From contig OZ242008.1 in the NCBI GenBank assembly GCA_965204735.1, forward strand, positions 2,560,001 through 2,624,000: a stretch of DNA of 64,000 nt, written 5' to 3'. The first letter of the stretch is position 1. Each line of letters begins with the position of its first letter. Positions 5,638-60,607 of this stretch are shown piece by piece. The DNA comes from Longimicrobiales bacterium. GTDB taxonomy: Bacteria; Gemmatimonadota; Gemmatimonadetes; Longimicrobiales; Gaopeijiaceae. A program made the translations under genes and the position numbers. The notes beneath the pieces are model-generated. The model saw only the letters and a list, made by a program, of their open reading frames with translations. It ran no database searches and was not told the origin of the DNA.

Positions 5638-7997
5638 GCTGGCTGGCTTGGTCTCCACGGCGGAGAGGGTCCAGCCGTCGGAGTCGCAAGGCCTTGGGCA
5701 GGGCCGGCTTCGCACGGGCGTCGTGGGGCGCGTCGCGCCCGTGGGTGGCCCTCGCGGGGCTGGCGATCGCCGTACCGGCTCTCGGCCAGCGGCCTCCTCC
5801 CGTCGCGGGCGAAGGCGACGCTTGCCTCGACGCTTATCCGGACCAGGTCGCCCACGGGTTGGTCGAGGGCGCAAAGGGGCGGCTCGGCTCGGCGCCCGGC
5901 TCCTGGACGGCCCGCCTGCACGGGCAGCGAAGGGCGGAGCTCGTAGCGGGCCGTCGCAGCCACGTCTTGCAGGACGTTCGCTGGGCCGCCCGGGTGCGGT
6001 GGTCCAGCAGGGCGTCGTCGGTCGTCCGGCTCGAGGGCCGGTGGGTCCGCCACCCCGCGCTGTCCGACGCCGACTCGGTCCTCGCCCGGCAAGTGGCAGA
6101 GCGTCCGCACGGGAATCCGTTCCGCTTCGGACTCCGGCAACTCGAGGCGCTGATGGCGCTGGATTCCGTCGAAACGGCCTCGGTGGTCACGCCGCTGGAC
6201 ACGGGGGCCGAGTGCTTCTACCGCTACCGCTCGGGCGACACGGCCTCGGTGACGCTTCCGGCGGGAGAGATCGTGCGGACGGTGGCCGTGACCGCCATGC
6301 CCCGCTTCCGCAGCATCCGCTTCCTGGCGTCCACGATGTGGATCGAGCCGGAGAGCCACGGAGTGGCCCGGGTTGCGTTCGCTCCGGCCAAGCAGATCGA
6401 CCGCGAAACGACCTTCCGCCTGTGGAGCGCGGACGGATGGACCCCGGGGATCGACGTCGACTTTCGGGAAGGGCCGGCAGACGTGGACTCGGTGGGCGGA
6501 ACGCGCCGGCCCAGTGGAAGCAGGACGGGAGCCCGCGGCCTGGGCCGGCTGCTGAACGCCGGACTGAACCGGGCCCTGCCCCTGATCGAGTACCCGATCT
6601 CGTCGGTCGTCGTGGACTACTCGCTCTGGCAGTCTCGGTGGTGGCTGCCTCGGTCCCTGACGTTGACGATGCATCAAGCCCTGGTCGAGGATCAGAGTTT
6701 TCTTCTGGACTGGGATCAAGCGCCGCCGGAGATGCACGTCCGCTTCTCCACCCAGACGGCGTTCGAGATCGAGGAGGTGAAGGAGGCGGACGCGATTCCG
6801 TCGACGCAGCTGGTCGCGCGATGGAAGGCGCCTACGGACAGCGTGCTCGCAGCGTCCGGAGACGAAGGGGCCGTCCTCGTCGTGCCCAGCGAGCTGGACG
6901 TCGCTTCGCCAGACGAGCTCTTCCTGCCCGTCTCGTGGAACCCCGCCCCCCACGCGCCCGGCGGGGCACTGGACCAACTGGCGTCCGAGCTGGCGCGGAT
7001 CGAGGTCGGCGGGGGCGACGGGGGCGACGACGCCGAAGCGAAGGCCGCGAACGAGCCGAGTCCATGGTTCTTCGAGCCCCCGCTGCTGACCCTTCGGCTG
7101 CTGTCCTACACTTCCGCGCGGGGAGTGGTGGTCGGGACGCGCCTCTGGCGACGCGCTTCGTGGGGACGTGCTTCTCTCTCGGCCAGCGCGGGCACTCGCC
7201 GAGCCGAGCCGAGCGTCTTCCTGTCCTTCGACGCCCGCTTCCCGACTTGGCGGCTTCAAGCGTCCGCGTACCACGACTACCGGTTGACGAGCGTTGCGGC
7301 GAGCGACGCCTCGACGGCCCCCGCCGCCGATCCGATCTGGTACGCCGCCGACGGGGTGCGCGTCCGGCTGTCGCCGGCCCGGCGCAACCGCCAGTCCACT
7401 TCGCTGAGCCTCTTCGCCGAACGCCACGACGAGTACGGTCCTGCCGCCGTGCGGGCAGGAGCCACGGCGGCGTGGAAGCCGTGGTGGGGCGGCTCGGGAG
7501 GCACTCGCTCCCGGCTCGTCCAGGGCGGCGCGGAGCTCTCCGCTCGGGGAACGCTCGAAGAGGACCCGTCGCTTCGGGCCGCCGCGACCGCCACCGCGCT
7601 CCTCTTTGCGAGCCGGCGCGCTTCCCTGGGCTTGGAAGCCGGCGCCGCCCGCACCTGGGGCGGCCCGCGCCGCACCGACCCATGGCTCTTGGGCGCCGCC
7701 GACGGGCGATGGTTCCGCGGACGGACGGCGCAGGGCTTCGCCGGACGGACGGCGGTGCGCGGTCGCGCCGACCTCCAGCTCCGGGTTCGCTTTGCGCGGC
7801 TGTCGGTCTTTGTCGACTGGCTCCGCGCCTGGCGCGAACAGCCCCCTGGCGACGGGACGTCCTTCCTCTCGGCGGGCGCGGGCGTCTTCCTGCCCGGCGG
7901 CCTTCGGATCGACCTGGCTCGGGAGTTCCCCGCGGCCGGCGATGCACCGGTGGACGCCAAGTGGCGCCCCTACGTCAGCATCGACACGGCGTTCTGA
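5574..7997 (+). CDS. Hypothetical exported / probable outer-membrane beta-barrel protein (start uncertain)
   Basis: 807-aa ORF; hydrophobic signal-like stretch WVALAGLAIAVPALG; amphipathic beta-strand C-terminal half ending in Phe (SIDTAF). Confidence 0.65.
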   Translation: MAARTSSRTPRQGSDARGRPLGWLAWSPRRRGSSRRSRKALGRAGFARASWGASRPWVALAGLAIAVPALGQRPPPVAGEGDACLDAYPDQVAHGLVEGAKGRLGSAPGSWTARLHGQRRAELVAGRRSHVLQDVRWAARVRWSSRASSVVRLEGRWVRHPALSDADSVLARQVAERPHGNPFRFGLRQLEALMALDSVETASVVTPLDTGAECFYRYRSGDTASVTLPAGEIVRTVAVTAMPRFRSIRFLASTMWIEPESHGVARVAFAPAKQIDRETTFRLWSADGWTPGIDVDFREGPADVDSVGGTRRPSGSRTGARGLGRLLNAGLNRALPLIEYPISSVVVDYSLWQSRWWLPRSLTLTMHQALVEDQSFLLDWDQAPPEMHVRFSTQTAFEIEEVKEADAIPSTQLVARWKAPTDSVLAASGDEGAVLVVPSELDVASPDELFLPVSWNPAPHAPGGALDQLASELARIEVGGGDGGDDAEAKAANEPSPWFFEPPLLTLRLLSYTSARGVVVGTRLWRRASWGRASLSASAGTRRAEPSVFLSFDARFPTWRLQASAYHDYRLTSVAASDASTAPAADPIWYAADGVRVRLSPARRNRQSTSLSLFAERHDEYGPAAVRAGATAAWKPWWGGSGGTRSRLVQGGAELSARGTLEEDPSLRAAATATALLFASRRASLGLEAGAARTWGGPRRTDPWLLGAADGRWFRGRTAQGFAGRTAVRGRADLQLRVRFARLSVFVDWLRAWREQPPGDGTSFLSAGAGVFLPGGLRIDLAREFPAAGDAPVDAKWRPYVSIDTAF

Positions 7998-8289
7998 CGC
8001 GGGAAGCGCAAGCTCATCGGCTTCGGGTACTCCCGGTCCAGGCGCGCCGGCGAGCTTCGGCACGCCTTGCTCACGGGACGCGCGGGGGTTCTCCGGGCCA
8101 GCCCGGAGGAGACGATGGGCCAGCCCGGAGGAGACGAAAAAAAATCTGTCCCATCCAGCCATGGAAATGGCGCATCCTCGGTGAGACACTGAGGACCAGG
8201 GCCGGAGACCGTCCCGGCCAGCTTCGGGGGAACTCCGTCCGCGACGCCTCCGAAGCGCCTCTCGTCTCGGACGCAACGGAGCCGCCGCC

Positions 8290-9339
8290 ATGGACCCCTC
8301 CACCAACGAACCGCCCACTCTCACCAAGCCGGAACGCCGCCGCCACGACCAGAGCTACAAGCGCCTCTTCAACACGACGGGCGGCGGCGTGGCCCTCGTC
8401 CGCGATCTCGCGGCCATGGGCTGGGCCGACGAGTTCGACCTGCCGGCCGCCGACCCCTTCCCCACCGAGACCGTGGGCCCCGACCTGCAGCACCGGCTCT
8501 GCGACTGCGCGTGGCGCGTCCGGTTCAAGGACGGTCGATCGGCGGTCCTCCTCTTCGAGTTCCAGTCCTCGGTCGATCCGGGCATGGTCCTCAGGACGCT
8601 ACGCTACACCGAGGCCGCCTACACGGTGCTGCACACGCTCGAGCGCCAGCGCGACCCCGACGGCGCCATGCCCCTCGTGCTCTCGTTCGTCGTCTACACC
8701 GGCACGAGGCCATGGACGGCCGAGACGACGCTGGCCGGGCTGGCCGGCAGGGAGGAGCCGTCGCCGGTCGTGGCACGGGCGGTCGCTGGCTTGGCGACCA
8801 CTCACGGCTACGGGCTGCTTGACTTGCGGTCGGCGCTGGCGCAAGGGTTGCTTCCCAAGGAGAGCGTGCTGGGCTGGGTCGCGGCGCTGGAGGAGGACCC
8901 GTGGACGAACTTTCCGGCGGTGCACCAGAGCATGGCGGAGCAGTGGGCCGGCCCGGACTATCTTGCAGAGCGGCAGGCGTTCGCGGACTGGACGGACGAG
9001 CGGCTGCGTGTGGTGGGGGTGCCGGAGGAGGCACGTCAGGACATCGTGGAGCAGATCATCCAACCGAAGGAGGAGGAAGAGATGGGCCAGACCTATGCGG
9101 AGTGGGCGGAGGGCCACCGGCAGCGGGGACTCGAGCAGGGGCGCGCGGAAGGTCGAGCGATCATGCTGCTGCGTCTGGCTTCGCGGCGGTTCGGGGCCCG
9201 GACGGCGCGACGGCTGGAGGAGCGGGTGCGCTCCATGAGCGCCGAGCAGCTGGCGCGGGTCGGGGACGCGGTCGTGGAGTGCGACACTGCCGAGGACTTC
9301 TTGGCCGTGGCCGGCGACGGCAACGCGGAGGGGCGGTAG
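8290..9339 (+). CDS. Rpn/YhgA-like recombination-promoting nuclease (PD-(D/E)xK) with DUF4351-like C-terminus, copy 1
   Basis: HDQSYKRLF, RLCDCAWRV...LLFEFQSSVDPGMVLRTLRY, VVYTGTRPW, and tail GLEQGRAEG...LLRLASRRFG. Confidence 0.85.
   Translation: MDPSTNEPPTLTKPERRRHDQSYKRLFNTTGGGVALVRDLAAMGWADEFDLPAADPFPTETVGPDLQHRLCDCAWRVRFKDGRSAVLLFEFQSSVDPGMVLRTLRYTEAAYTVLHTLERQRDPDGAMPLVLSFVVYTGTRPWTAETTLAGLAGREEPSPVVARAVAGLATTHGYGLLDLRSALAQGLLPKESVLGWVAALEEDPWTNFPAVHQSMAEQWAGPDYLAERQAFADWTDERLRVVGVPEEARQDIVEQIIQPKEEEEMGQTYAEWAEGHRQRGLEQGRAEGRAIMLLRLASRRFGARTARRLEERVRSMSAEQLARVGDAVVECDTAEDFLAVAGDGNAEGR
9082..9339 (+). CDS. Putative internally initiated small C-terminal protein (Rpn-S-like antitoxin), 85 aa
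   Basis: AAGGAGGAGGAAGAG directly precedes in-frame ATG 9082 (MGQTYAEW); an equivalent RBS is present in copy 2. Confidence 0.55.
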   Translation: MGQTYAEWAEGHRQRGLEQGRAEGRAIMLLRLASRRFGARTARRLEERVRSMSAEQLARVGDAVVECDTAEDFLAVAGDGNAEGR

Positions 9340-9495
9340 CGGACGGCGGCGACGCCAAGCCGTCGCTTCCCGAGCACTGGCCAATGACGACAGGGGCTGC
9401 ACCGATGGGCAGAACCCAACGCTCGCCCAGCCCGGTGGTGGGCCAGTGGCAGCTGGGGGCGTCCCAAGCTCGCCGGCGTCGCGTGCAACCTCTTC

Positions 9496-11106
9496 CTACT
9501 CCCATTCGATCGTCGCCGGCGGCTTGGAGCTGATGTCGTAGGCCACCCGGCCGACGCCCTTCACTTCGTTGATCAGGCGGGTGGAGACGCGGGCCAGGAA
9601 CGCAGGATCGAAGGGGTACCAGTCGGCGGTCATGCCGTCGCGGGAAGTCACGGCCCGCAGCGCGACCACGTTCTCGTAGGTTCGAGCGTCTCCCATCACC
9701 CCCACCGACTGCACGGGCAGGAGGACCGCGAACGCCTGCCATATCTCGTCGTAGAGGCCGGCGGCGCGTATCTCCTCCAGGTACACCTCGTCGGCGTGGC
9801 GCAGGACGCGCAGGCGGTCCTCGGTCACCGCGCCCAGGACCCGAATCGCCAGCCCGGGGCCGGGAAACGGATGACGTGCGATGAAGTTTTCGTGGAGCCC
9901 CAGGGCTCGGCCGACCTCGCGCACCTCGTCCTTGAAGAGTTCGCGGAGAGGCTCGATCAGGTCGAACGAAAACTCTTCGGGCAAACCGCCTACGTTGTGA
10001 TGCGTCTTGATCGTGGCCGACGGTCCGCGGACGGGCAGGGACTCGATCACGTCCGGATACAGCGTCCCCTGCACCAGTAAACGGGCGTTTCCGGCAGAGT
10101 CGCGGGCGACCCGCTCGAAGACGCGGATGAAGGTCTCGCCGACGATCTTCCTCTTCCGCTCCGGTTCTTCCGTCCCCGCAAGGGCCGCGAGGAACTCGGC
10201 GGAGGCGTCCACCGCCGTCAGGCGGATGCCCATGTGGTCGCGAAACATCCGTTCCACATCCCGGCGCTCGTTGCGGCGCATCATCCCCGTGTCCACGAAG
10301 ACGCACAGCAGCTGGTCGCCCACGGCCGTGTGGACCAGCGCCGCGGCCACCGACGAGTCCACGCCGCCGGAGAGACCGCAGAGGACTTGCTGGTCGCCGA
10401 CTTGCTCCCTGATCCGCTCCACCGCCTCCGCGACGAAGGCGCCCGACGTCCAGCTCGGGACGCACCGGCAGATGCGAAAGAGGAAGTTGGCGACGATCTC
10501 GCCGCCCCGGGGCGTGTGGGCGACCTCCGGATGGAACTGCACGCCGTGAAGGGGCCGGTCCACGGCGCGGAAGGCCGCCACCGGCAAGTCGGCCGTGGAC
10601 GCGGTGGCGACGAACCCCGGTGGGAGTTGGTCCACGTGGTCGCCGTGGGAGCACCACACCACGACGGCTTCCCCGTCGCCGCGGCCGTCGGCGCCGGCTT
10701 CGGACCCAGGCTCGCCCAGCAGGTCCTGCGCGCGCTCGTCGCCCGCCCCGAAGCCCGCGAAGAGCCCGTCCGCCTCGTGGACCCGGAGGTCGGCGCGGCC
10801 GTACTCGCGCCTGCCCGGCGCCACGGCGCCGCCCTCGGCCCGTGCGATCAGCTGCATTCCGTAGCAGATGCCCAGCACGGGGACGCCGAGCGCCAGCAGG
10901 GCCGGGTCCAGTCCCGGGCCCTCCTGCTCGTAGACCGACGACGGACCCCCCGACAGGACGATTCCCTTGGGCTCCCAGCGGCGCACCCAGTCGGCGGAGC
11001 GGGTGGGCGGGTGGATTTCGCAGTAGACGCGGGCTTCGCGGATGCGGCGGGCGATCAGCTGGGTGAACTGGGAGCCGTAGTCCAGGACGAGGACGCGGTC
11101 AGGCAT
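9496..11106 (-). CDS. guaA: GMP synthase (glutamine-hydrolysing)
   Basis: [57 protein letters not shown]. Start at ATG 11106. Confidence 0.97.
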
Positions 11107-33032: not shown

Positions 33033-36000
33033 TTACTTGAAGGTAATCGTGCCGGCAAGTCCGACGCGGCGTTCCGGGGGCTGGAAGCCGTCGGTCGCCT
33101 GCTCGCCGAAGAAGTCCATCACCAGGCGGAGGCCGGAGGCCTGCTGCTCGGCGGTCTCGCCGCCCAGCGTCGCCCACTGCGTCCCCACGTTCAGGCGGTA
33201 GCCGGCCGCGCCTTCGCGGCTCCAGCGGCCGAACGGCTTGAGCTGGCCGCCGCCGGGCAGCGCCAACCCGTAGCCGACCTCCATCGCCAAGCCGTCCGGC
33301 GCCCAGCCTCGTGCGTTCTGGGGCGCTCCGAAGCCGTGGGCGGACGGGAAGCCGTGGGTCGGGCCGGCGCCGGGACTCGCGGGACCACCTGGACCGGTGG
33401 TGCCGCCGTGGCCGGCTTGGTCGCCGCCGGCGGGCACGGCGCCGGGCTGCGCCGCCGGAGCCGGCGCGCCCAGGCCCGGCACGCCCGCGGTCCGCCACAC
33501 GTCGGCGCCGCCTTGCCACAGCGTCTGCGCTCCGCCCGAGGCATTGCCCCACGACGGCTCCAGCGAGAACGACAGCCCGCCGTCTTCGCGGCGGGGCTGG
33601 ATCCGCAGCGCCACGGCCGCGCCCCAATCCTTGAAGTTCCGGTCCTGGTGGATCAGCAGCATCCGGCCACGGGCGTCGAGGCTCAACCCGCTGCCTTCGT
33701 GGGTGAACCCCAGGTCGGCGCCCGCTTCGGCGCCCATCCCCGTCTCGGCGTCGCCCCGGTCGTAGCGACCGCCCACCTCGATGCGCGTCCGCATCGCGAT
33801 GCTGCCGCTCGTCCACTGCCCGCCCAGCTCGGGCGCCAGCCGCACACGCTGCGCGTCGGCCGTCACGGCAGCCACATGTCCGTTCGACGCGTCCGTCATC
33901 ATGCGCACGGCGAAGGCGTCGGCCTTCAGCGCCAAGCCGCCGACCAGCTTCTGGCGCACGCCCAGCGCGCCCATCCGCATCCGCAGGTCGGCGTCGTAGG
34001 TCGGAGGACCCACCTCGCCCACGTTGGCGGCGCCCATTCCCGCGCCCGCCAAGCCCCATATCCCGAAGCCGCCCTGGGACGACCAGCTCAGGTAGGGGTA
34101 GAGGCTGGTCAGGTGGGCCTTCGTCTTGCCCACGCCGTTGATCCCGCTCTCGTAGTTCGCCGCCACGTCGCTGCGCGAGCCGGCCAGGCCCATCAGGAAG
34201 CCCGAGCCGAAGCGGTAGTCCAGACCCACGTACGCCGAGCGGGTGCGGCCGTCCATGGCAAAGTCGTCTTCGGGGCGGCCCTCGAACTGGCCCACGTTGG
34301 CCTGGCCCCACAGCGTCCAGCCGGCCTGGGATGCCGTCTGCGAAGGGGCGGCGTCGGCGCCATCGGCGTCGGCGTTGCCCTGCTCGCCGCCCGAGCCGCC
34401 GAAGGAGAGCTGGAACGAGCTCCGGGAGCGGAGGTCGCGGCCCGTCAGCGGGCTGAACGCGATGCCGCCGCGCTCACGCTCGGCAGGCAACGCGCCCTCT
34501 TCCCGCTGACCCTGGTACGAGCCGCCTTGTCCGAGCGAGCCGCTCCCGGCGACGCCCATGCCGGTCGCGCCGTCGCCGAAGAAGATCGCCGCCAAGTCCA
34601 GCGTCCCGCCGGCGCTGCCGCCGGCCACGCCCGGATGCGTGATCTGGAACCCGAGCAGGCCCGTTGCGTCCCGCACCAGCGACTCGAGCCCGCAACGGCC
34701 CGAACCGGCGTGGGCCGCGGCCGTGCTGGCCTCGGCCGACTCGCCCGGGCCTTGGTCCGCGTCCGCGTCGCCAGCCGCGCCGCCGTCACCGAACGTGCGG
34801 GACGAGGCCGTGCCGCTGGACACGCCGCCCGAGCCACGGCCGCCGCCGAACGCGAGGCAGCTCAGCGAGCGCCCGCCCAGCTGCACGTGCGAACCGCCCG
34901 GCGAACCCGACGGCTCCAGACCCAACCGACCGCCGATCGTCTCGACCGTCTCCGTCCCCAGCGACCGTCCGAACGCCGCCAGCGTCAGCTTCAGCGCACG
35001 AGCCCGATCCGCACGCGACGCCGACACCGTCACGCTCGCCTGCTGCGTCGCCGTCAAGCCGCCCGCGTCCGTCGCCGTCACCGTCACCACCGTCGCGCCG
35101 ATCTCCCGCGGCGCCACCGACAGCCGCCCCGCGCCCGACACCGACGCCGCCGCCACGTCCGGCGACGACGACGCCACCACGTAGCTCAGCGCGTCGCCGT
35201 CCGGGTCACGGAAGTACTCGCCCAGACCCACCTCCCACGGCGCGCCGCTCACCTCGAGCACCGGCGGCGACAGCGATCCCACCGCCTCCGGCCCCTCGTT
35301 CACGTCCAGCAGCGTCACCACGACCCGCGCCTCGGCCGTCAGACCGCCGCCGTCCGTCACCCGCACCGTCAGCGCGAACTCCGGCGGACCGTCCTCGTAG
35401 TCCTCGCCGGCGCCCACGTAGCGCACCCGCCCGCTCGCCCCGTCCACATCGAAGCGGCCACGATCGCCCTGCGCCAAGCTGTACGTCAGCGCGTCGTCGC
35501 GGTCCGGGTCCGTCGCCTCGACCCGTCCCAGCTCCCGAGGCCCGCGCACGTTCTCCGCCAGATCGAACGCATATGCGGAGTCCACGAACGCCGGCGCCTC
35601 GTTCACGTCCAGCAGCAGCACCCTCACCTTCGCCACCGCCGCCAACCCAGCACGGTCCGTCGCCACCACCTCGAACTCCCAGCCATCAGGACCCGTCTCC
35701 GCGTCCTCGCCAGCGCCCACGTACCGCACCACGCCGCTCGACTCGCCCACGTCGAACAGCGCCGCGCCCGCGCCGCTCAAGCTGTAGCGCAGCGTGTCGC
35801 CAGCGTCCACGTCCGTCGCCTGCACTGCGCCGAGCTCCACCGGGCCCGCCACGTGCTCCGCCAACTCCCACTCCCAGATCGGCTCGACGAACACCGGGCC
35901 CTCGTTCTGGTCCTCGAGCGTCACCACCACTCGGGTCCGCGCTGTGAGGCCGCCTCGGTCCGTCGCCGTCACCTCCAGCTCCCAGCTGCCCGGACCCGTC

Positions 36001-39000
36001 TCCGCATCCTCGCCGGAGCCCACGTACCGCACCGCACCGCTCGTCGCGTTCACCTTGAACCGCTCGGCGTCGCCCGCCGTCAGCGCGTACGACAGCCAGT
36101 CGCCGCCGTCCGGGTCCGTCGCCCGCACCTCGCCCAGCAGCAGCGGACCACGCTCGTTCTCCGCCAGATCGAAGGCGTATGCAGAGTCGGCGAACGCTGG
36201 TCCCTCGTTCACGTTCGTCAGCGCCACCGCCACCAACGCCCGCGCGCTCGAACCCGCCAGGTCCGTCGCCGTGACTTCCAGCTCCCACGACTTCGGTCCC
36301 GCGCCCTCGTAGTCCTCCCCGCCGCCCACGTACCGCACCGCGCCCGTCACACTGTCCACGGCGAAGCGATCGGCGTCGCCCGCCGCCAGCCGGTACGTCA
36401 GCGTGTCGCCCTCGTCCAGGTCCACCGCCTCCACCACGCCCAGCGCCAGCGGCCCGGCAGCGTTCTCCGCCATCGCGAAGGCGTAGCGCTCGGCCGTGAA
36501 CACCGGCGCGTCGTTCACGTTCACCAGCCGCACCGTCACCGTCGCGTCGCCCGTCCGCTCCCCGTCGTCGGCCGTCGCGCGCACGATCATCACGAACTCC
36601 GAACGCGACTCCGCGTCCTCGCCCGTCCCCACGTACCGCACCTCGCCGGTGCGAGCGTCCACCTCGAAGAGACCCTCGTCGCCCGCCGCCAGCGAGTACG
36701 CCACCTCGCCGCCGAAGGGGTCGGTCGCGCTCACCGTCCCCACCACCACCGGCCCCGCCACGTCCTCCGTCAGCTCGAACTCGTACTCCGCGCGACCGAA
36801 CACCGGGTCCGTGCCCCCAGCCCCGTTCACCTGGTGCTCCTCCAGGTTCTCCACCTCGTGGCCGCTCAAGTCCAGCGTAGCCGCCATCGTGCCGCCCGCG
36901 ATCCGCAGCGCAGCGCCGCCCGTCGCAGTCAGCGCGTCGGCCGGGATGCTGATCCCGTCCTCGTCCCGGTCCGCAGGCTGCACCACGTACTCGAACACCA
37001 CCATCGGCGTGCCCGAACCCGACACGTAGCTCGCCTGGCGCACGGCCGTCCCGATCTCGATCGACAGCTGCGGCGCGCCCACCACCTCCACCGGCCTGCT
37101 GAACGTCACCGTCACGCGGATCACGCTGCTCGGACCGTACAGCCCGCTCGCCCCCGGCGTGCTCGTCACCGCCATCGCCATCACCGCCGGCACCGCCTCG
37201 ACCGTGCCGTCCACCTTGTCGTTCGCGGCAGCCGCGATCGCGTGGCTGCCCAACGCCAGCACCGCCGGACGTACCCCGTCCGCCGTGTTCACGATTGTCG
37301 CGCCGTTCAGCGTCAGCGCCGCAGCAGCCACGCCCACGCCGTCGGCATCGGCGTCCACACCGCCCGTCCCGCTGCCACCCGAGCCCGCGCCCTGCACGCG
37401 GTACGCGAACGACAGCGTCGCCGTGCCGCTGCCGCCGACGTAGCTCGCCTGCCGCGTCGCCGTGCCCACCGTCAGCGCCAGCTGCGGCGCGCCCGTCACC
37501 GTCACCGCACGGTCGAACGTCACCTGCACCTCGATCCGCTCGCCCAGGCCGTACGTGTCGCCGCTCTCCGGCGTGCTCGACACCGCGACGCCCGTCACCG
37601 ACGCGCCCGCCAGCGTGCCGTCCACCTTGTGGCCCGCAGCAGCGCTCAACGCATGGCTGCCCAGTCCCAACGCCGCCGCCGTCGAGCCGTCCCGAGCGTC
37701 GTTGATCGTCCCGCTGTTCAGCGCCAGCGCGCTCGCGCCCACCTCGATCCCGTCGGTGTCCGCGTCCGCAGCCACCACCGTGTAGCGGAACGTCAGCGTG
37801 TGCGTGCCCGTCCCGCTCGCGTAGTCCGCCTGCCGCGTCGCAGCGCCCACCGTCAGCGCCACCTGCGGCGTGTCCGTCACCGCCACGCGACGGTTGAACG
37901 TCACCTGAACCTCGATCTGCTCGCCCCGCGCGTACGTCGTCCCCACCGCAGGCGAACTTGTCAGCGACACGCCCGACACCGACGCCGCCGTGAACGTCCC
38001 GCCCGCAACCTTGTGCCCCGCGCTGTTCGTCACCGCGTGGCTGCCCAGCCCCAGAACGGCGTCCACCGTGCCGTTCGCCACGTCGATCGTCCCGCCGTTC
38101 AGCGCCAACGCGCTCGCGCCGATGCTCAGCCCGTCGGCGTCCACGTCCGCCGTCACCACGACGTACCGGAACACCAAAGACGCCGTGCCCGTCCCGCTCG
38201 CGTAGCTCGCCTGCTTCGTCGCAGCGCCGATCGTCAGCGCCAGCTGCGGCGTCCCCGTCACGTCCACCGCCTTGTTGAACGTCACCGTCGCGATGATCGT
38301 GTCGCCACGCTCGAACGTCGTGCCGACCGGCGGCGACGCAATCGACACGCCGCTCACGCCCGGCGGGCCCTGGCTCCCGTCCACGGCCTGGCCCGAAGCG
38401 TTCGTGATCGCGTGACTGCCCAGCCCCAGGCCCGCCGCCGTCGAACCGTCGCGAGCGTCCGAGATCGTACCGCCGTTCAGCGCCAACGCGCTCGCGCCGA
38501 TGCTCAACCCGTTCGCGTCCGAGTCGCTCGACTGCACCGTGTACTGGAACGTCAGCACTCGACCGCCCGCCCCCACGCTCGTCGCCGAATCGTACGCCGC
38601 CTGCCGCGTCTGGCTCCCGATCGTCAGCGCCAGCTGCGGCGCGCCCGTCACGCTCACGTGGCGGTTGAACGTCACCTCGACCTCGATCTCCTCGCTCAAC
38701 CCGTACGTGCTCCCGTCCGCCGGGCTGCTCGCGATCGACACGCCGCTCACCGACGCCGCCGTGAACGTCCCGCCCGCAACTCGCAACGCGCCGTGGTTGC
38801 TGATCGCATGATGCGCCAAGCTCAGCAACGCGTCCGTCGTCCCGCCCGCAACGTCGATCGTCCCGCTGTTCAGCGCCAACGCGCTCGCGCCCACGCTCAA
38901 CCCGTCCGTGTCCACGTCCGCCTGCACCACTACGTACCGGAACACCAGCGCCGCCGTACCCGTCCCCGATGCGTAGCCCGCCTGCCGCGTCTGCGTCCCA

Positions 39001-42000
39001 ATCGACAACGCCAGCTGCGGCGTGCCCGTCACGTCCACCTGCTTGTTGAACGTCACCGTCGCAACCACCGTGTCGCCGCGCTCGAACGTCCCGCCCACCA
39101 GCGGCGCAGCCACCGACAACCCCGCCACCCCCGGCGGTCCCTGGCTGCCGTCCACCTTGTGCGCCGCAGCGTTCGTCACCGCGTGCGACCCCAAGCTCAA
39201 CGCCGCAGCAGCAGAACCCGGACGCACGTCCGCAATCGTCCCGCCGTTCAGCGTCAACGCGCTCGCGCCGATGCTCAACCCGACCGTGTCTGTGTCCGCC
39301 GGTCGGACCGCGTACTCGAACACCAGCGTGTCCGCCTTGCTCGTCGCCGAATCGTAGGCCGCCTGCCGCGTCTGCGTCCCGATCGTCAGCGCCAGACGCG
39401 GCACGCCCGTCACCGCCACCGGTCGCCCGAACGCCACCTTCACCTCGATCGACTCGCCCAGCTTGTACGTGCTGTCCGCAGCCGGCGCGCTCGATATCGT
39501 CACCGCGCTCACCGCCGGCGTCGTGAACGTCCCGCCCGCAACCTTGTGTCCAGCGCTGTTCGTCACGGCGTTCGACCCCAACGCCAGCAGCGCGTCCAGC
39601 GTACCGCCCGCAACCTTGATCGTCCCGCCGTTCAACGCCAACGCGCTCGCGCCGATGCTCAACCCGTCGGAGTCCGCGTCGCCCGACGCCACAACGTACT
39701 GGAACGCCAGCGTGTCCGTGCCCGTCCCGCTCGCGTACTCCGCCTGCCTGGTCGCGCTCCCGATCGTCAACGCCAGCTGCGGCGTGCCCGTCACGTCCAC
39801 CGCCCGCGTGAACGCCAACGCCACCTCGATCGTCTCGCCGCGCTCGAACGTGTCGCCCACCGTCGGAGAACTGATCGACAGCGCCGTCACCCCCGGCGGA
39901 CCAACGCTCCCGTTCACCTTGTGCGCCCTCGCGTTCGATATCGCGCTCGAACCCAGTCCCAGGCTCGCCGCCGTCGATCCGTCCCGCGCATCGGCGATCG
40001 TACCGCCGTTCAGCGTCAGCGCGCTCGCGCCGATGCTGATCCCCGTCGAGTCCTCGTCCGTCGCCACCACCGTGTAGCCGAACGCCAGCGTGTTCGTCCC
40101 GCTCCCGCTCGCGTACGACGCCTGCCGCGTCTGACTCCCGATCCCCAAAGCCAGCTGCGGCCCGCCCGTCACCGTCACCGGGCGCGTGAACCCAACCTCG
40201 ACCTCGATCACCTCCGTCCGTCCGTAGATGCTGTCGCTCGACGGAGCGCTCGCAATCGTCACGCCGCTCACCGCCGCAGCCGTGAACGTCCCGCCCGCAA
40301 CCTTGTAGTTCCCGTTGTCGGTGACGTAGTGATCGCGCAGGCTCACCACCGCGTCCGTCGTACCGCCCGACACGCGGATCGTCCCGCCGTTCAGCGCCAG
40401 CGCGCTCGTGCCGATGCTGATCCCCGTCGAGTCCTCGTCCGCCGTCACCACCACGTACCGGAACACCAGCGTGTCCGTCCCCGTGCCCGCAGCGTAGCTC
40501 GCCTGCTTCGTCGCGCTCCCGACCCCCAGCGCCAGCTGCGGCGTACCCGTCACCGCCACCGACTTGTTGAACGCGACCTTCACCTCGATCGTCTCGCCAC
40601 GCTCGAACGTGTCGCCCACATGAGGCGAGCCGATCGCCAACCCCGTCACACCCGGCGGTCCGAGCGCGCCGTCCACCTTGTGCGACGCCGCGTTCGTGAT
40701 CGCGCTCGATCCCAGTCCCAAGCTCGCCGCCGTCGAACCGTCCCGAGCGTCGTTGATCGTGCCGCTGTTCAGAGCCAACGCGCTCGCGCCAACGCCGATC
40801 CCGTCCGCGTCCGCGTCCGCCGCCACCACCTCGTAGCCGAACGTCAGCGTCGCCGTCCCGCTCCCGCTCGCGTACTCCGCCTGCCGCGCCGCAGCCCCCA
40901 CCGTCAATGCCAGCTGCGGCGTGCCCGTCACGTTCACCGACCGCACGAACGTCACCTCGACCTCGATCTCCTCGCCCAGACCGTACGTGTCACCGCTCGA
41001 CGGAGCACTCGAGATCGTCACGCCGCTCACCGACGACGCCGTGAACGTCCCGCCCGCTACCTTGTGCCCCGTGCTGTTCGTCACCGAGTGCGTGCCCAAC
41101 CCCAAAGTCGCGTCCAGCGTGCCGCCCGACAGCCGGATCGTCCCGCTGTTGAGCGCCAATGCGGTCGTCCCGATGCTCAACCCGTCCGCATCCACGTCTG
41201 CAGTCACCACCGTGTACTGAAACACCAGTGCCGTCGTGCCCGTGCCGCTCGCGTACGACGCCTGCCGCGTCTGCGAACCGATCCCCAGCGCCAGCTGCGG
41301 CGTACCCGTCACGTCCACCGCACGGTTGAACGTCACCGTTGCCGCAATCACGTCGCCACGCTCGAACGTGTCGCCCACGGGCGGGGACGCGACGGCCAAG
41401 CCCGTCACGCCCGGCGGCCCCTGCGCGCCGTCCACCTTGTGCGCCGCAGCGTTCGCGATCGCGTAGCTCCCCAGGCCCAGGCCCGCAGCCGTCGAACCGT
41501 CGCGAGCGTCCGAGATCGTACCGCCGTTCAGCGCCAACGCGCTCGCCCCGATGCTGATCCCGTTCGCGTCCGCGTCCGCCGCCACCACCGCGTAGCCGAA
41601 CGTCAGCGTCTTCGTCCCCGTCCCGCTCGTGTACTCCGCCTGCCGCGTCTGCGAACCGATCGTCAGCGCGACCTGCGGCGTGTCCGTCACCACCACGCGA
41701 CGGTTGAACGTCACCTCGACCTCGATCCGCTCCGTCCGGCCGTACGTGCTGTCGCTCGCCGGAGCGCTCGATATCGACACGCCCGCTACCGTCGCCGCCG
41801 TCAACGTACCCCCAGCCACCTTCCGGCCCGAATGGTTCGCTATCGTCCGCCCCGTCAAGTCCAGCAATGCGTTCACCGTCGTCTGCTGACGCCTGACCGT
41901 GCCACCGTTCAGCGTCAACGCGCCCGCGTCCACGCTCAACCCGTCGGCGTCCACGTCCGCCTGCACCACCGTGTACTGGAACACCAGCGACGGCGTGCCC

Positions 42001-45000
42001 GTGCCGCTCGCGTATGCCGCCTGCCGCGTCTGCGAACCAATCCTCAACGCCAACTGCGGCGTGCCCGTCACGCTCGCCGGACCGCTGAACACCACGACCG
42101 CGCGAATCGTTTCGCCGCGCTCGAACGTGTCGCCCACCACCGGAGCGTCTATCGTCAACCCCGTCACATACAGCGCGTTGCCCGCCACCTTGTGCGCCCC
42201 AGCGTTCGTCACCGCGTTCGACCCCAACCCCAGGCTCGCCGCCGCCGTCCCGCCCGCCAGCACGATCGTCCCGCCGTTCAGCGCCAGCGCCGTCGAGTCC
42301 ACGCTGATCCCGTCCGCGTCCACGTCCGTCGCCACCACCGTGTGCCGAAACGCCAGAACGTCCGTGCCCGTCCCGCTCGCGTACGACGCCTGCACCGTGT
42401 CGCTCCCGATCCGCAACGCCAACCGCGGCGTGCCCGTCACCGTCACCGCCCGATCGAACGCCACCTCCACCTCGATCACGTTCCCCGCCGCATACGTCGA
42501 GTCCGGACCCGCGTCGCTCGTTATCGTCATGCCGCTCACGCCCGGCGCCGTCTCCTTGCCACCGTCCACCTGGAACAGCACGGAGTTCGCAAAGTTCCAC
42601 GGCGACAAAGACAGGTTCGCGTCCCCCGTCGTGCCCTGCCGCCGGATCGTCGACCCCGACGGCAACGTCAGCGCGTTCGCCCCGATGCTGATCCCCGTCG
42701 AGTCCCTGTCCGCCGCCACCACCGTGTAGCAGAACACCACGATCGTCTCGCCCGACTTGTCGCAGTACGACGCCTGCCGCGTCTGCGAATCGATCCCCAG
42801 CGCCACACGCGGCGGCTGCGCACCCGCTTCCACGTCCACCGCCACGTTGAACCCGACGCCCACCCGAATCACGTCCCCAAGCCCGAACACGCTGTCCGTG
42901 CTCGCGTACGAAAGCCCAGTGTTGTCAGCGTCCAAGAAGAACACGCTCGCCACTACAGGAACGTACGCGCCCCACACCTGGTGCGCCGCCGCGTCCGCGA
43001 TCGCGTGGCTCCCCAGCGCCAAGTACGCGTTCGTCGTGCCGCCCGATGCCCTGATCGTCCCGCTGTTCAGCGCCAATGCGCTCGCCCCGATGCTGATCCC
43101 CGTCGAGTCCCTGTCCGCCGTCACTACCACATATTGGAACACCAGCGAGTTCGTGCCCGTCCCGCTCGCGTACGCCGCCTGCCGCGTCAGCGTGTCGACC
43201 TCCAGAGCCACCTGCGGCACGCCCGTCACCGCCACCGTCGAGTCGAACGTCACCGTCACCTCCACCGTGTCCCCAGCGGCGTAGATGCTGTCAGCGCCCG
43301 CGTCGCTCGAAATCGCCAGCCCCGTCACCATCGGCAACCCCTGCGAGCCGCTCACCTTGTGCGTCGCCGCGTTCGCGATCGCGTGGCTCCGCAACCCCAA
43401 GTACGCGTTCACCGTGCCGGACCCCGCCCGCCTGATCGTCGTCCCCGCCGGCAGCGTCAGCGCGCTCGCTCCGATGCTGATCCCCGTCGTGTCCGAGTCG
43501 GCCAACTGCACCACGTAACGGAAGGTCAGCGAATCGCCGCCCGTCCCGCTCGCGTAGCTCGCCCGTCGCGTCTGCGTCCCGATCGTCAGCTCCAGCCGCG
43601 GCGTTCCCGTCACGTCCACGTTCTCGTTGAACACCAGTCCCGCCTCGATCGTGTCGCCCAACGCATACGTGCCGTCGCTCCCCGCGTTGCTCGCAATCGA
43701 CGCGCTCGTCACGTGAGGCACCGCCTGAGCGCCGTTCACCTTGTGCGCCGAGAGGTTGACGAGCGGCGTGAAGTCCAAGAACGCGTTCGCCGCGCCCGCC
43801 GGCGCTCCGGGCGTCCTGATGTAGTCGCTTCCGCCCACCGTCATGCTGTCGACGCTGAGCCCGTCCGCGTCCAAGTCGGCCAGCACCGGATTGTACCGCC
43901 AGTGAATGGTTCTCGTGCCAGGGTTGACGTTCTGAACGTAGCCCTCGCGGACATTCTCTCCAATCGTCAGCCACAGGCCCGAATTCGCCGTCGTAACCGC
44001 CGCATTAAACGTCCGATCGAACACCACGAAGAAGTCGATGATGTCGCTCATGGCCCACGTCTCGTCGGACCCCGCGCCGGTGGGCAACGTAACGCTCGCT
44101 ATCTTGGGCACTTCCCACACACGGTGCGCACGGTCGTCCGTGGCGACGTGGTTCCACAAGCTCAGGTACACGTCCGTGCCCGCCCTTCTGATCGTACCGC
44201 CGTTCAGCGTCAGAGCATTGCGCCCGTAGCTGATCCCGTTCGTGTCGTTGTCTCCCGGCGCCACCACGTAGTTGAACCTCAGCGTTGTCGTGCCCGTCCC
44301 CGACACGTAGCTCGCCTGCACCGTCGACGACATTATCAGCGCCAGCTGCGGCGTACCCGTCACGTCCACCGCTCGGTTGAACACGACCTCTATCGCGATC
44401 GTGTCCCCCTCCACGTAGATGCTGTCGGCGCCCGCGTCGCTCGTGAACGACGTGCCCGTCACGATCGTCGCGCCCGACGTCAGCACCTTGTGGGCCGCCG
44501 CGTTCGCCACAACGAAGTTCACTATCGACAGCGTCGCGTCCACCGCCGCGCCCGCCCTTCTGATCGTCCCGCCGTTCAGCCCCAGCGCACTCCCCCCGAT
44601 GCTCAACCCGTCCGAGTCCGCGTCGCCGCTCGCCACCACGTAGCGGAACGTCAGCGAATCCGTCCCCGTGCCGCCCGCGTAGCTCGCCTGCCGCGTCTGC
44701 ACGCCGATCCCCAGCGCCAGACGCGGCGTGCCCGTCACGTCCACGCTCTCGTTGAACACCACCGCTACTTGCACCGTGTCGCCCGCCGCATACGTGCTGT
44801 CCGTCCCCGCATCGCTCGTGATCGGCATCCGCACCACCGCCGGCGGCCCCGCCAAACCATCCACCTTGTGGGCCGCAGCTTCGGCGACCCTGTGGACCCG
44901 CAAGCCCAAGTACGCGTTCACGACGCTGCCAGCCCGCCGTATCGTCCCGCCGTTCAACGTCAGGGCGCTCGAGCCGATGCTGATCCCCGTCGAGTCGACA

Positions 45001-58129: not shown

Positions 58130-58459
58130 CTACCGCCCCTCCGCGTCGCTGCTGCCGGCCACGGCCAGGAACTCGTCGGCAGTGTCGCACTCCACGACCG
58201 CGTCCCCGACCCGCGCCAGCTGCTCGGCGCTCATGGAGCGCACCCGCGCCTCCAGCCGGCGCGCCGTCTGGGCCCCGAACCGCCGCGAAGCCAGACGCAG
58301 CAGCAAGACCGCTCGGCCCTCCGCACGCCCCTGCTCGAGCCCCCGTTCGAGCCCCTGTGCACGTCCTCGTTCGAGCCCCTGTTCACGTCCCCGCTCGAGA
58401 CCCTGCTCCAGGCCCCGCTGCCGGTGGCCCTCCGCCCACTCCGCATAGGTCTGGCCCAT
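58130..58459 (-). CDS. Putative internally initiated Rpn-S-like protein, 109 aa
   Basis: AAGGAGGAGAAAGAG precedes in-frame ATG 58459 (MGQTYAEW). Confidence 0.55.
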   Translation of the reverse strand: MGQTYAEWAEGHRQRGLEQGLERGREQGLERGRAQGLERGLEQGRAEGRAVLLLRLASRRFGAQTARRLEARVRSMSAEQLARVGDAVVECDTADEFLAVAGSSDAEGR

Positions 58460-59251
58460 CTCTTTCTCCTCCTTCGGTTGGATGATCTGCTCCACGATGT
58501 CCTGACGTGCCTCCTCCGGCACCCCCGCCACACGCAGCCGCTCGTCCGTCCAGTCCGCGAACGCCTGCCGCTCTGCAAGATAGTCCGGGCCGGCCCACTG
58601 CTCCGCCATGCTCTGGTGCACCGCCGGAAAGTTCGTCCACGGGTCCTCCTCCAGCGCCGCGACCCAGCCCAGCACGCTCTCCCTGGGAAGCAACCCTTGC
58701 GCCAGCGCCGACCGCAAGTCAAGCAGCCCGTAGCCGTGAGTGGTCGCCAAGCCGGCGACCGCCCGCGCCACAACCGGCGACGGCTTCTCCCTGGCGGCCA
58801 GCCCGGCCAACGTCGTCTCGGCCGTCCATGGCCGCGTGCCGGTGTAGACGACGAACGAGAGCACGAGGGGCATGGCGCCGTCGGGGTCGCGCTGGCGCTC
58901 GAGCGTGTGCAGCACCGTGTAGGCGGCCTCGGTGTAGCGCAGCGTCCTGAGGACCATGCCCGGATCGACCGAGGACTGGAACTCGAAGAGGAGGACCGCC
59001 GATCGACCGTCCTTGAACCGGACGCGCCAAGCGCAGTCGCAGAGCCGGCGCCGCAGGTCGGGGCCCACGGTCTCGGTGGGGAAGGGGTCGGCGGCCGGCA
59101 GGTCGAACTCGTCGGCCCAGCCCATGGCCGCGAGGTCGCGGACGAGGGCCACGCCGCCGCCCGTCGTGTTGAAGAGGCGCTTGTAGCTCTGGTCGTGGCG
59201 GCGGCGTTCGGGCTTGGGGAGATTGGGCGGTTTGCTGGTGGAGGGGTCCAT
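58130..59251 (-). CDS. Rpn/YhgA-like recombination-promoting nuclease, copy 2
   Basis: Near-identical to 8290..9339 but with 24 extra residues of G(L/R)E(Q/R)-type tetrapeptide repeats. Confidence 0.85.
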   Translation of the reverse strand: MDPSTSKPPNLPKPERRRHDQSYKRLFNTTGGGVALVRDLAAMGWADEFDLPAADPFPTETVGPDLRRRLCDCAWRVRFKDGRSAVLLFEFQSSVDPGMVLRTLRYTEAAYTVLHTLERQRDPDGAMPLVLSFVVYTGTRPWTAETTLAGLAAREKPSPVVARAVAGLATTHGYGLLDLRSALAQGLLPRESVLGWVAALEEDPWTNFPAVHQSMAEQWAGPDYLAERQAFADWTDERLRVAGVPEEARQDIVEQIIQPKEEKEMGQTYAEWAEGHRQRGLEQGLERGREQGLERGRAQGLERGLEQGRAEGRAVLLLRLASRRFGAQTARRLEARVRSMSAEQLARVGDAVVECDTADEFLAVAGSSDAEGR

Positions 59252-59356
59252 GGCGGCGGCTCCAGTGCGTCCGAGACGAGAGGCGCTTCGGAGGCGTCGC
59301 GGACGGAGTTCCCCCGAAGCTGGCCGGGACGGTCTCCGGCCCTGGTCCTCAGTGTC

Positions 59357-60607
59357 TCACCGAGGATGCGCCATTTCCATGGCTGGATGGGACAGATTTT
59401 TTTGTCTCCTCCGGGCTGGTCCGTCGTCGCCTCGGGGCTGGTCTGGAGGCCCCGTGCGTCCCATGAACTGGGCGGCTGAAGCTCCTCCGGCACCTGGACC
59501 GCCGCCGGCCGCTACCGATTCCAAGAGACCCTCGAACGCGTCCGCCGTCCGGTCCCAGGTGAAGGTCTCGGCCATCGCCCGGGCCGCCCGGCCCATGGCG
59601 TCTCTTGCGTCGGGCGGCAGCACGCGGGCCAGAGCCGCGGCCAGGGCGTCCACGTCGCCGTGGGGCACCAGCAGGCCCGTTTCCCCGTGGCGGACCGTCT
59701 CCCGCAGTCCCGGCGAGTCCGACGCAACGGTGGGAGTGCCGCACGCCGACGCTTCGACGCTGGCGATCCCCCAGCCCTCCTTGGGAGAGGCGAGGGCGTG
59801 CACCCACGACCTGGACAGCAGCTCCCGCTTCTCGTCCTCGGGGACGAAGCCCGCGAAGCGGACCCGGTCGCCCATGCCCAGCCCCGCGGCCAGCCGCTCC
59901 AGATCCTTCCGGGCGCGTCCCTTCCCCGCGACGACGACGTTGAGCGGCGTTCCCCTGTCCGTCAGCCGGGCCGCCGCGCGGAGCACCAAGTCCACCCGCT
60001 TGTACTTCTGGAGCCGGCCCAGGAAGACGACCGTGGGCTCGGGGAACCGCTTCGACGCCGGCCAGAGCCGATCGAGGTTCACGCCGTTGCGGACGACCTC
60101 GAAGCGGGACGGCTCCAGCCCCCTCCGGAGCAGGTCGTCCCGGGTGCTTTCGGAGACGGCGACGCAGGGAAGGCCCCGGTAGGCGGTCGGGACGACGCGC
60201 TCGAAGAGCCACGTTGCGCCGGCCAGAACCCAGTTGGCCTCGCGGAAGGCGGTGGCGCCGAAGAGGTGGTGCACCAGAAGGAGGCGAGCCGGCGCCCGGG
60301 TCCAGAGGGGCGCCAGAATGGGAACCTTGTTCAGGTCCTCCACCAGCACGTCGAATGGCTCGTCCGCCAGTCGGCGCTCGTACTCCAAGGGTCCGGCGAT
60401 GTTGAATGTGTAGCGGCGGCCCGCTCGGTGGACTCGAACGCCGTCCACGTCGGCCACCCGTTCGCACCTGGGCCAGCCCGAGCACAGCAGCGTGACCCGA
60501 TGCCCGCGCTGGACCAGGCGGCCGAAGACCTGGTGCAGGTGCTCCTCGGCGCCGCCCGCCGCCGGATTGAGGCGGTCCAGCCAGTTGACGACGAGGATGC
60601 GGAGCAT
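59357..60607 (-). CDS. Glycosyltransferase family 4 (GT-B fold)
   Basis: NPAAGGAEEH, FLGRLQKYKRVD, KEGWGIASVEASACGTP, ETGLLV. The C-terminus runs into the Rpn cassette leader. Confidence 0.92.
   Translation of the reverse strand: MLRILVVNWLDRLNPAAGGAEEHLHQVFGRLVQRGHRVTLLCSGWPRCERVADVDGVRVHRAGRRYTFNIAGPLEYERRLADEPFDVLVEDLNKVPILAPLWTRAPARLLLVHHLFGATAFREANWVLAGATWLFERVVPTAYRGLPCVAVSESTRDDLLRRGLEPSRFEVVRNGVNLDRLWPASKRFPEPTVVFLGRLQKYKRVDLVLRAAARLTDRGTPLNVVVAGKGRARKDLERLAAGLGMGDRVRFAGFVPEDEKRELLSRSWVHALASPKEGWGIASVEASACGTPTVASDSPGLRETVRHGETGLLVPHGDVDALAAALARVLPPDARDAMGRAARAMAETFTWDRTADAFEGLLESVAAGGGPGAGGASAAQFMGRTGPPDQPRGDDGPARRRQKNLSHPAMEMAHPR

Follow-up and report, generated by a model that had tools for sequence, protein, structure and literature searches.

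A probable competence-type promoter and a moderately conserved leader hairpin upstream of a multicopy Rpn nuclease gene in a Longimicrobiales bacterium

Rpn/YhgA-like genes, which carry a Transposase_31 domain, have been described as toxin-antitoxin (TA) genes (PMC5350276, PMC10327210). The accessible sections of PMC10327210 introduce the concept of a long form, RpnL, accompanied by an RpnS product made from an internal start; they describe the Rpn antitoxins as proteins, report that rpn genes have variable ends and are devoid of terminal repeats, and note that native expression suggests additional regulation of an unexplained kind. Set beside the available text of the two papers, the gene studied here is similar in its domain layout and catalytic residues, its variable four-residue repeats, its in-frame internal start and the variable ends of its copies. 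It differs in having a leader structure, a feature absent from both accounts in their accessible parts, and competence, Sxy and CRP go unmentioned in that of PMC5350276. Other points of comparison are provided by regulons for DNA uptake or repair. In gamma-proteobacteria, the CRP-S/Sxy competence regulon unites pilus genes, comM, dprA and ssb under a dedicated motif (excerpts of PMC1635313), whereas a -10 element combined with a non-canonical box is found at recA both in PafBC promoters (excerpts of PMC8635444) and in the DdaA system of Moraxellaceae, where DdaA links repair and defence genes (excerpts of PMC12392091). The promoter described below is like all three in these respects.

The window, i.e. 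the whole 64,000-nucleotide stretch that was analysed, belongs to a genome of 4.14 Mb and 69% GC and contains an Rpn (YhgA-like) gene at 8290..9339 on the plus strand (349 amino acids, ATG at 8290, Transposase_31 and DUF4351 domains). The Pfam match to Transposase_31 has an E-value of 2.7e-11 and a score of 43.9 bits, for a cut-off of 21. Residues D20, D72, E90, Q92 and R102 are invariant in 16 of 16 aligned proteins and are spaced as D11, D63, E82, Q84 and R94 of RpnA, a correspondence established by spacing and without alignment to RpnA. The number of four-residue repeats varies among the Rpn copies, and an in-frame ATG at 9082, situated after a purine-rich Shine-Dalgarno (SD) sequence, opens an internal reading frame (9082..9339, plus strand, 85 amino acids, DUF4351) predicted to encode an RpnS-type antitoxin. 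When genome contigs were searched with this single protein, the sole relative found was 33% identical and had a similar motif (L059); the single-protein search of metagenome contigs and an alignment-based search of viral contigs found none, and PADLOC returned no match.

The genome contains 11 occurrences of the unit formed by promoter, leader and Rpn gene with its internal RpnS start, and their ends are ragged. Leader and gene make up ten full copies and one with an internal deletion, and are 91-100% alike; in the deleted copy (G000:C1:3182452-3183413, minus strand), the promoter and half of the leader are fused to the middle of the gene. Similarity between copies extends about 151-260 nt 5′ of the ATG, always including the promoter, and about 31-135 nt beyond the stop, a downstream match being found in 8 of 10 copies. 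Since the shared sequence always takes in the promoter, we infer that the module spread by copying at the DNA level. The close copies are dispersed, without tandem arrays. In a search for empty sites, G002 and G259 showed no Rpn match near their orthologue of the upstream gene, and G003 had a distant Rpn (28%) there; no clean empty site emerged from the loci compared, guaA lying outside them. The initial annotation had reported the same sequence at about 59265-59385. A second copy of the module is indeed present there (58130..59404, minus strand, box start at 59393, ATG at 59251, 373 amino acids), but it is not identical: two bases differ, just 5′ of the SD. On the upstream side, an approximately 21-23-nt tandem duplication adjoins the module at 8093-8136 and is degenerate in the second window copy. 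Elsewhere in the window, a 4644-amino-acid open reading frame (33033-46967, minus strand) is matched by an open frame of the same length on the other strand.

The segment 8137-8190 is, judging from its sequence, almost certainly a promoter composed of three boxes and a -10 element at a fixed distance. It begins with an A-tract resembling an UP element (8137..8144, plus strand), which is where the shortest module copy starts. There follows what we call the regulon box (8148..8174, plus strand; about -49 to -23), made of GKCCSA, AT at offsets 13-14 and YGNCC at offsets 20-24, and then, 37 nt from the box start, a -10 element of the form xAxxxT (GACACT, 8185..8190, plus strand). The first clue was a weak BLAST match to 8137-8191 located upstream of a type IV pilin gene. 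A matrix derived from 14 sites gave 63 matches above 13 bits in the genome versus none in the reversed genome, and one derived from 28 Rpn promoters belonging to other genomes yielded 37 above 20 bits, again versus none, the independence of this rescan being partial because a matrix derived from the present genome had served to find the 28 training sites. The -10 element played no part in locating these sites; its A and T are nevertheless found at the fixed offset in all 28 of them, and in 22 of 22 leaders. Among related loci, a motif above 10 bits precedes 53 of 66 Rpn starts, as against 1 of 66 in the reversed controls, and one above 8 bits precedes 11 of 30 recA genes versus none of 30 controls. 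A sigma-70 consensus scan of 7900-9600 found no promoter-like site, the promoter being devoid of a consensus -35.

The genes that share this promoter give an indication of its role. The 37 matches above 20 bits divide into 24 upstream of Rpn genes and 13 upstream of others, and the latter include pilB, comEA-pilT, pilin, recA, comM and ssb (named from Pfam), i.e. one motif serves pilus, DNA-receptor and recombination genes. Most Rpn subfamilies are under it. The run ansA-obgE-dprA is probably under the same promoter, with a site of 14.7 bits in the rescan, 2.4 kb upstream of dprA. In other genomes, the motif is found upstream of comM, pilin and obgE (G141), ssb and ansA (G021), comEA (G001 and G003) and pilB (G003). 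Since the same promoter stands before DNA-uptake and recombination genes as well as Rpn genes, it is most likely the competence promoter of this lineage. Several observations speak against a clean competence reading: 19 of 30 recA genes have no site above 8 bits, and secA, a C39 peptidase gene and coiled-coil genes are under the motif. No site was found within 3 kb upstream of comEC. In G141, which has 22 pattern matches versus none in the control, only some precede such competence-type genes, and the complete genome G008 has only two pattern matches, neither of them upstream of a recognisable competence gene; the Pfam comparison covered 20 of the 35 open reading frames downstream of pattern matches.

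Some members of the gene set deserve mention for themselves. The coiled-coil genes found under the promoter are small and repeat-rich (G000:C1:2383466 and 3406208, both on the minus strand; loci L291 and L296 of G141) and may constitute a second family riding on the regulon. In another family, the motif precedes a gene for a PDDEXK_3 nuclease (L108, G040:C91:1603), so other nucleases may belong to the regulon too. The comEA-like gene of the present genome (L095:215-907, i.e. G000:C1:1701438-1702130) has two HhH_3 stretches, and its start appears to lie in a frame other than the one used in G001 and G003, so a frameshift is possible.

As to the protein that reads the motif, several known regulators were considered and set aside. 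CRP-S would require a symmetrical site with a TGCGA core, which is absent; from column counts, the motif is unrelated to that of the CRP-S regulon and lacks its TGCGA palindrome, as far as that motif is given in the excerpts of PMC1635313. Sigma-54 was judged unlikely by eye only, and LexA (SOS) does not fit, the best scores upstream of two lexA and two uvrA genes being negative. The genome has two lexA-like genes without the motif (G000:C1:1440791-1440976 and 2154564-2154755, both on the minus strand), the first of which lies immediately 5′ of an Rpn copy. In a study attributed to Sinha in 2009, the Sxy regulon of E. coli reportedly included putative transposase genes, a possible precedent for Rpn under competence control. 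In the literature searched, mostly without subscription papers and supplements, we found no description of a link between Rpn and a DNA-uptake regulon, nor of this motif or of an Rpn leader RNA.

The -10 element at 8185-8190, together with the box at 8148-8174, leads one to expect a transcription start near 8197 and hence a 5′ untranslated leader of about 93 nt (8197..8289, plus strand). This start determines how the structures proposed in the initial annotation are to be read. The annotation saw in 8158..8289 a single structured RNA, and its helices are all there; as a unit beginning at 8158 the proposal is not supported, the first 40 bases being promoter. Complementarity is confirmed for hairpin 1 (8158-8171), hairpin 2 (8176-8194) and P3 (8200-8219), but the box encloses hairpin 1, the -10 element falls within hairpin 2, and the expected start is downstream of both, which argues against their existence as RNA. 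Over 19 leaders, their positions are paired in 56.7% of cases, a value reached in 355 of 500 shuffles; hairpin 2 has five paired positions that vary even among the copies of this genome, and the GNRA tetraloop ascribed to hairpin 1 is not conserved. The folding energy of 8158-8289 is unremarkable (MFE z-score of -1.58, 13 of 200 shuffles folding as well), as is that of the leader taken alone (z-score of -0.25). Rfam gave no match in the window at the gathering threshold, the best score near the site being 17.7 bits for a threshold of 50, and by E-value its matches were at chance level only. Downstream, the two interleaved helices were described correctly: S1 has 10 bp including one G-U, S2 has 10 of 11 positions paired, and the loops measure 5, 0 and 6 nt; the GGAG of the SD of long Rpn follows at 8278..8281 (plus strand), before the ATG at 8290.

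Homologous leaders were found in three genomes (G000, G003 and G259); the 22 distinct sequences, which have a mean identity of 63%, represent about five lineages. From these, RNAalifold retained S1 alone (8221..8256, plus strand; strands 8221-30 and 8247-56, with a possible inner stem 8236-39/8243-46). S1 is paired at 88.5% over the 22 leaders, with only 1 of 500 shuffles as high, and its duplex is better than that of shuffled sequences (p up to 0.015) in 17 of them; in the other 5 it is bulged and weak. Covariation, which the annotation had suggested looking for, amounts to one compensatory change in S1, from U-A to C-G in two related sequences, next to a G-U/A-U/G-C series; it is not significant (200 of 500 shuffles), and S2 falls below slid controls. 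By sequence comparison, S1 is therefore the only leader helix supported by conservation, and this support is modest because the rows represent about five lineages; the chances that S1 is functional as RNA seem to us evenly balanced. P3 (8200..8219, plus strand), predicted with a probability of about 0.95, is paired at 72% on the model-fitted alignment and shows no compensatory change; in two of the leader alignments, several rows are one column out of register at P3, so the P3 counts are too low. A covariance model of the leader gave 22 matches in 30 loci, and none to the pilin leader, to the partial G269 leader or to six Rpn leaders of other subfamilies. Applied to 81 genomes of the family, it matched five: three contained only the training leaders and the deleted copy of this genome, and the other two had weak single matches (E about 0.002-0.003) unlike Rpn leaders. 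A second Rpn subfamily has a different leader, conserved across G000, G002 and G269 (G000:C1:1235194, 4137287 and 4130321, all on the minus strand; loci L031, L070, L071 and L183).

Our preferred explanation, which we consider probable overall, combines a competence-type promoter with an Rpn leader in which a single hairpin is moderately conserved; others must be weighed against it. For the promoter, the alternative is a DNA-damage promoter read by PafBC through sigma adaptation, with rpn genes acting in defence and induced by damage or phage. Descriptions of PafBC come mostly from actinobacteria. The present genome has tandem WYL+WCX genes, one of them with an HTH_PafC domain (G000:C1:3224320-3225616, minus strand, L100), and its PafB-like protein retains the arginine pair of mycobacterial PafB; within the order, 15 of 41 genomes have HTH_PafC. 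The motif stands upstream of recA and ssb, and its third box is positioned like the tGTCgg(N10)tA(N3)T motif, or -26 element (excerpts of PMC8635444), with a similar G-x-C core and different flanks. The distribution of sites nevertheless makes this explanation very unlikely: no WYL match was found in any of the five genomes tested, and four of these five have the motif at recA or Rpn (G021, G017; G144, G061). Both uvrA and both lexA genes are without a site, the PafBC consensus is without the two upstream boxes, and the gene set consists mostly of pilus and DNA-uptake genes. The two extra boxes, the absence of uvrA and lexA sites and the occurrence in WYL-less genomes distinguish this promoter from DdaA promoters as well, to the extent that both kinds are covered in the excerpts of PMC8635444 and PMC12392091.

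For the leader, the most serious competitor holds that the promoter is real and the folds are meaningless, recent copying and gene conversion having kept GC-rich sequence uniform; it can be combined with what the preferred explanation says of the promoter, and we rate it as a real possibility, falling somewhat short of even chances. It would account for the z-scores of this genome's leaders (-0.08 to -0.45), for the single compensatory pair and for the unrelated leaders that most other Rpn subfamilies have under the same promoter. It fits less well with the S1 strands ranking among the most conserved segments of leaders whose overall identity is only 63%, with changes in S1 that mostly preserve pairing, including G-U on the sense strand, and with the duplex beating shuffles in 17 of 22 leaders. 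By comparison, the H-type pseudoknot of the initial annotation, taken as a lineage-specific fold of 8221-8273 that would lock both anti-SD stretches in an ON state for long Rpn, is unlikely. The arrangement is present, and in favour of it one may cite that none of 400 shuffles has two interleaved stems with 10 or more pairs each, that S1 and S2 contain none of the eight variable leader sites among the ten full copies (for S2 taken by itself, p 0.052), that the contigs of four runs show the same variants only, that the duplex between loop and downstream strand does better than shuffles in all 6 distinct leaders of this genome (p about 0.01), and that one G003 group is able to form a different pairing at the same place. 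But S2 (8236..8273, plus strand; strands 8236-46 and 8263-73) is not conserved outside this genome: it is paired at only 59.9% over the 22 leaders, slid controls are higher on covariation, and in 16 of 16 leaders of other genomes, including the G003 group, it does no better than shuffles. That its pairing exceeds column shuffles (none of 500 as high) is expected from six near-identical rows. Among 600 random 132-mers drawn from the genome, 6 contain the same arrangement, so several are expected per 64-kb window, and the 6-nt loop would have to bridge about 37-40 Å (from helix parameters), near full stretch. A single self-complementary 11-mer, in two versions, supplies both strands of S2, which therefore pair automatically; the pseudoknot is more simply seen as a local side effect of having two similar palindromic 11-mers. 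Least credible of all is the suggestion that 8158-8289 is a discrete non-coding RNA that binds or guides the nuclease. The segment does travel with the gene in all 11 copies, but its 5′ third is promoter, a scan of 7900-9600 found no terminator-like site, the leaders of close Rpn relatives in G002 are shorter and unrelated to it, and Rpn antitoxins are described as proteins in the accessible part of PMC10327210. The covariance model, for its part, found no free-standing copy, matching only Rpn leaders and the two weak unrelated sites.

Translational cis-regulatory leaders that use anti-SD and anti-anti-SD helices are a known class, and the leader of long Rpn is like them in that a strand of S1 can alternatively pair with the SD; it differs in having no Rfam match and in a conservation confined to one Rpn subfamily in three genomes. 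The initial annotation took the structure for a cis-regulatory leader limiting translation of the toxic full-length nuclease. An Rpn leader with a conserved S1 is what we find at 8197-8289, but a pseudoknot would expose the SD rather than hide it. The 3′ strand of S1 contains an anti-SD, and when the gene start is included in the folding, this strand is predicted to pair with the SD (p 0.96), forcing S1 being 2.4 kcal/mol worse; an extended S2 is also able to cover the SD. Because S1, alone or with S2, stops short of the SD and sequesters the anti-SD, the annotated structure would be the ON state, if a switch exists, and translation would then be limited by the competing SD-paired fold, according to a model built on nested folding only. 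Occlusion of the SD is uneven across leaders, its mean unpaired probability ranging from 0.02 to 0.57.

The explanation that we favour may be put as follows. The segment 8137-8190 would act as DNA, with a normal -10 element and a multi-box site that replaces the consensus -35 and serves an activator or an alternative sigma factor. The same promoter would drive recA, ssb, comM, comEA-pilT, pilB and pilin, and probably the dprA run. Transcripts would start near 8197, and in vivo the leader would fold into P3 and S1. In this genome, S1 would compete with the nearly equal fold in which its 3′ strand pairs with the SD, the latter keeping translation of toxic long Rpn low or slow, and RpnS, if expressed from its internal start, would neutralise what long Rpn remains. 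Toxic Rpn nucleases would then be switched on together with DNA uptake, as the observed motif, spacing and gene set suggest. A more far-reaching version, which we offer as a tentative and rather doubtful one, is that Rpn TA nucleases across the family are governed by an undescribed competence promoter and cut DNA at uptake, leading either to their own ragged insertion together with the promoter or to a screening of incoming DNA, with S1 or the pseudoknot as ON state and the SD-paired fold as OFF state dosing the toxic long form in this subfamily.

By itself, the RNA structure is of modest interest, and its conservation pattern is as described above. The promoter supplies a candidate competence motif for a lineage for which none was found in the literature searched. 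What triggers Rpn, and how rpn genes spread without the hallmarks of transposases, is left unexplained in the accessible part of PMC10327210, as regards both regulation and ragged ends. Wiring to competence, if true, would account for the multiplication of genes that are not transposases, and a promoter common to most rpn genes of the family and to DNA-uptake genes offers a testable answer, namely that Rpn acts during competence.
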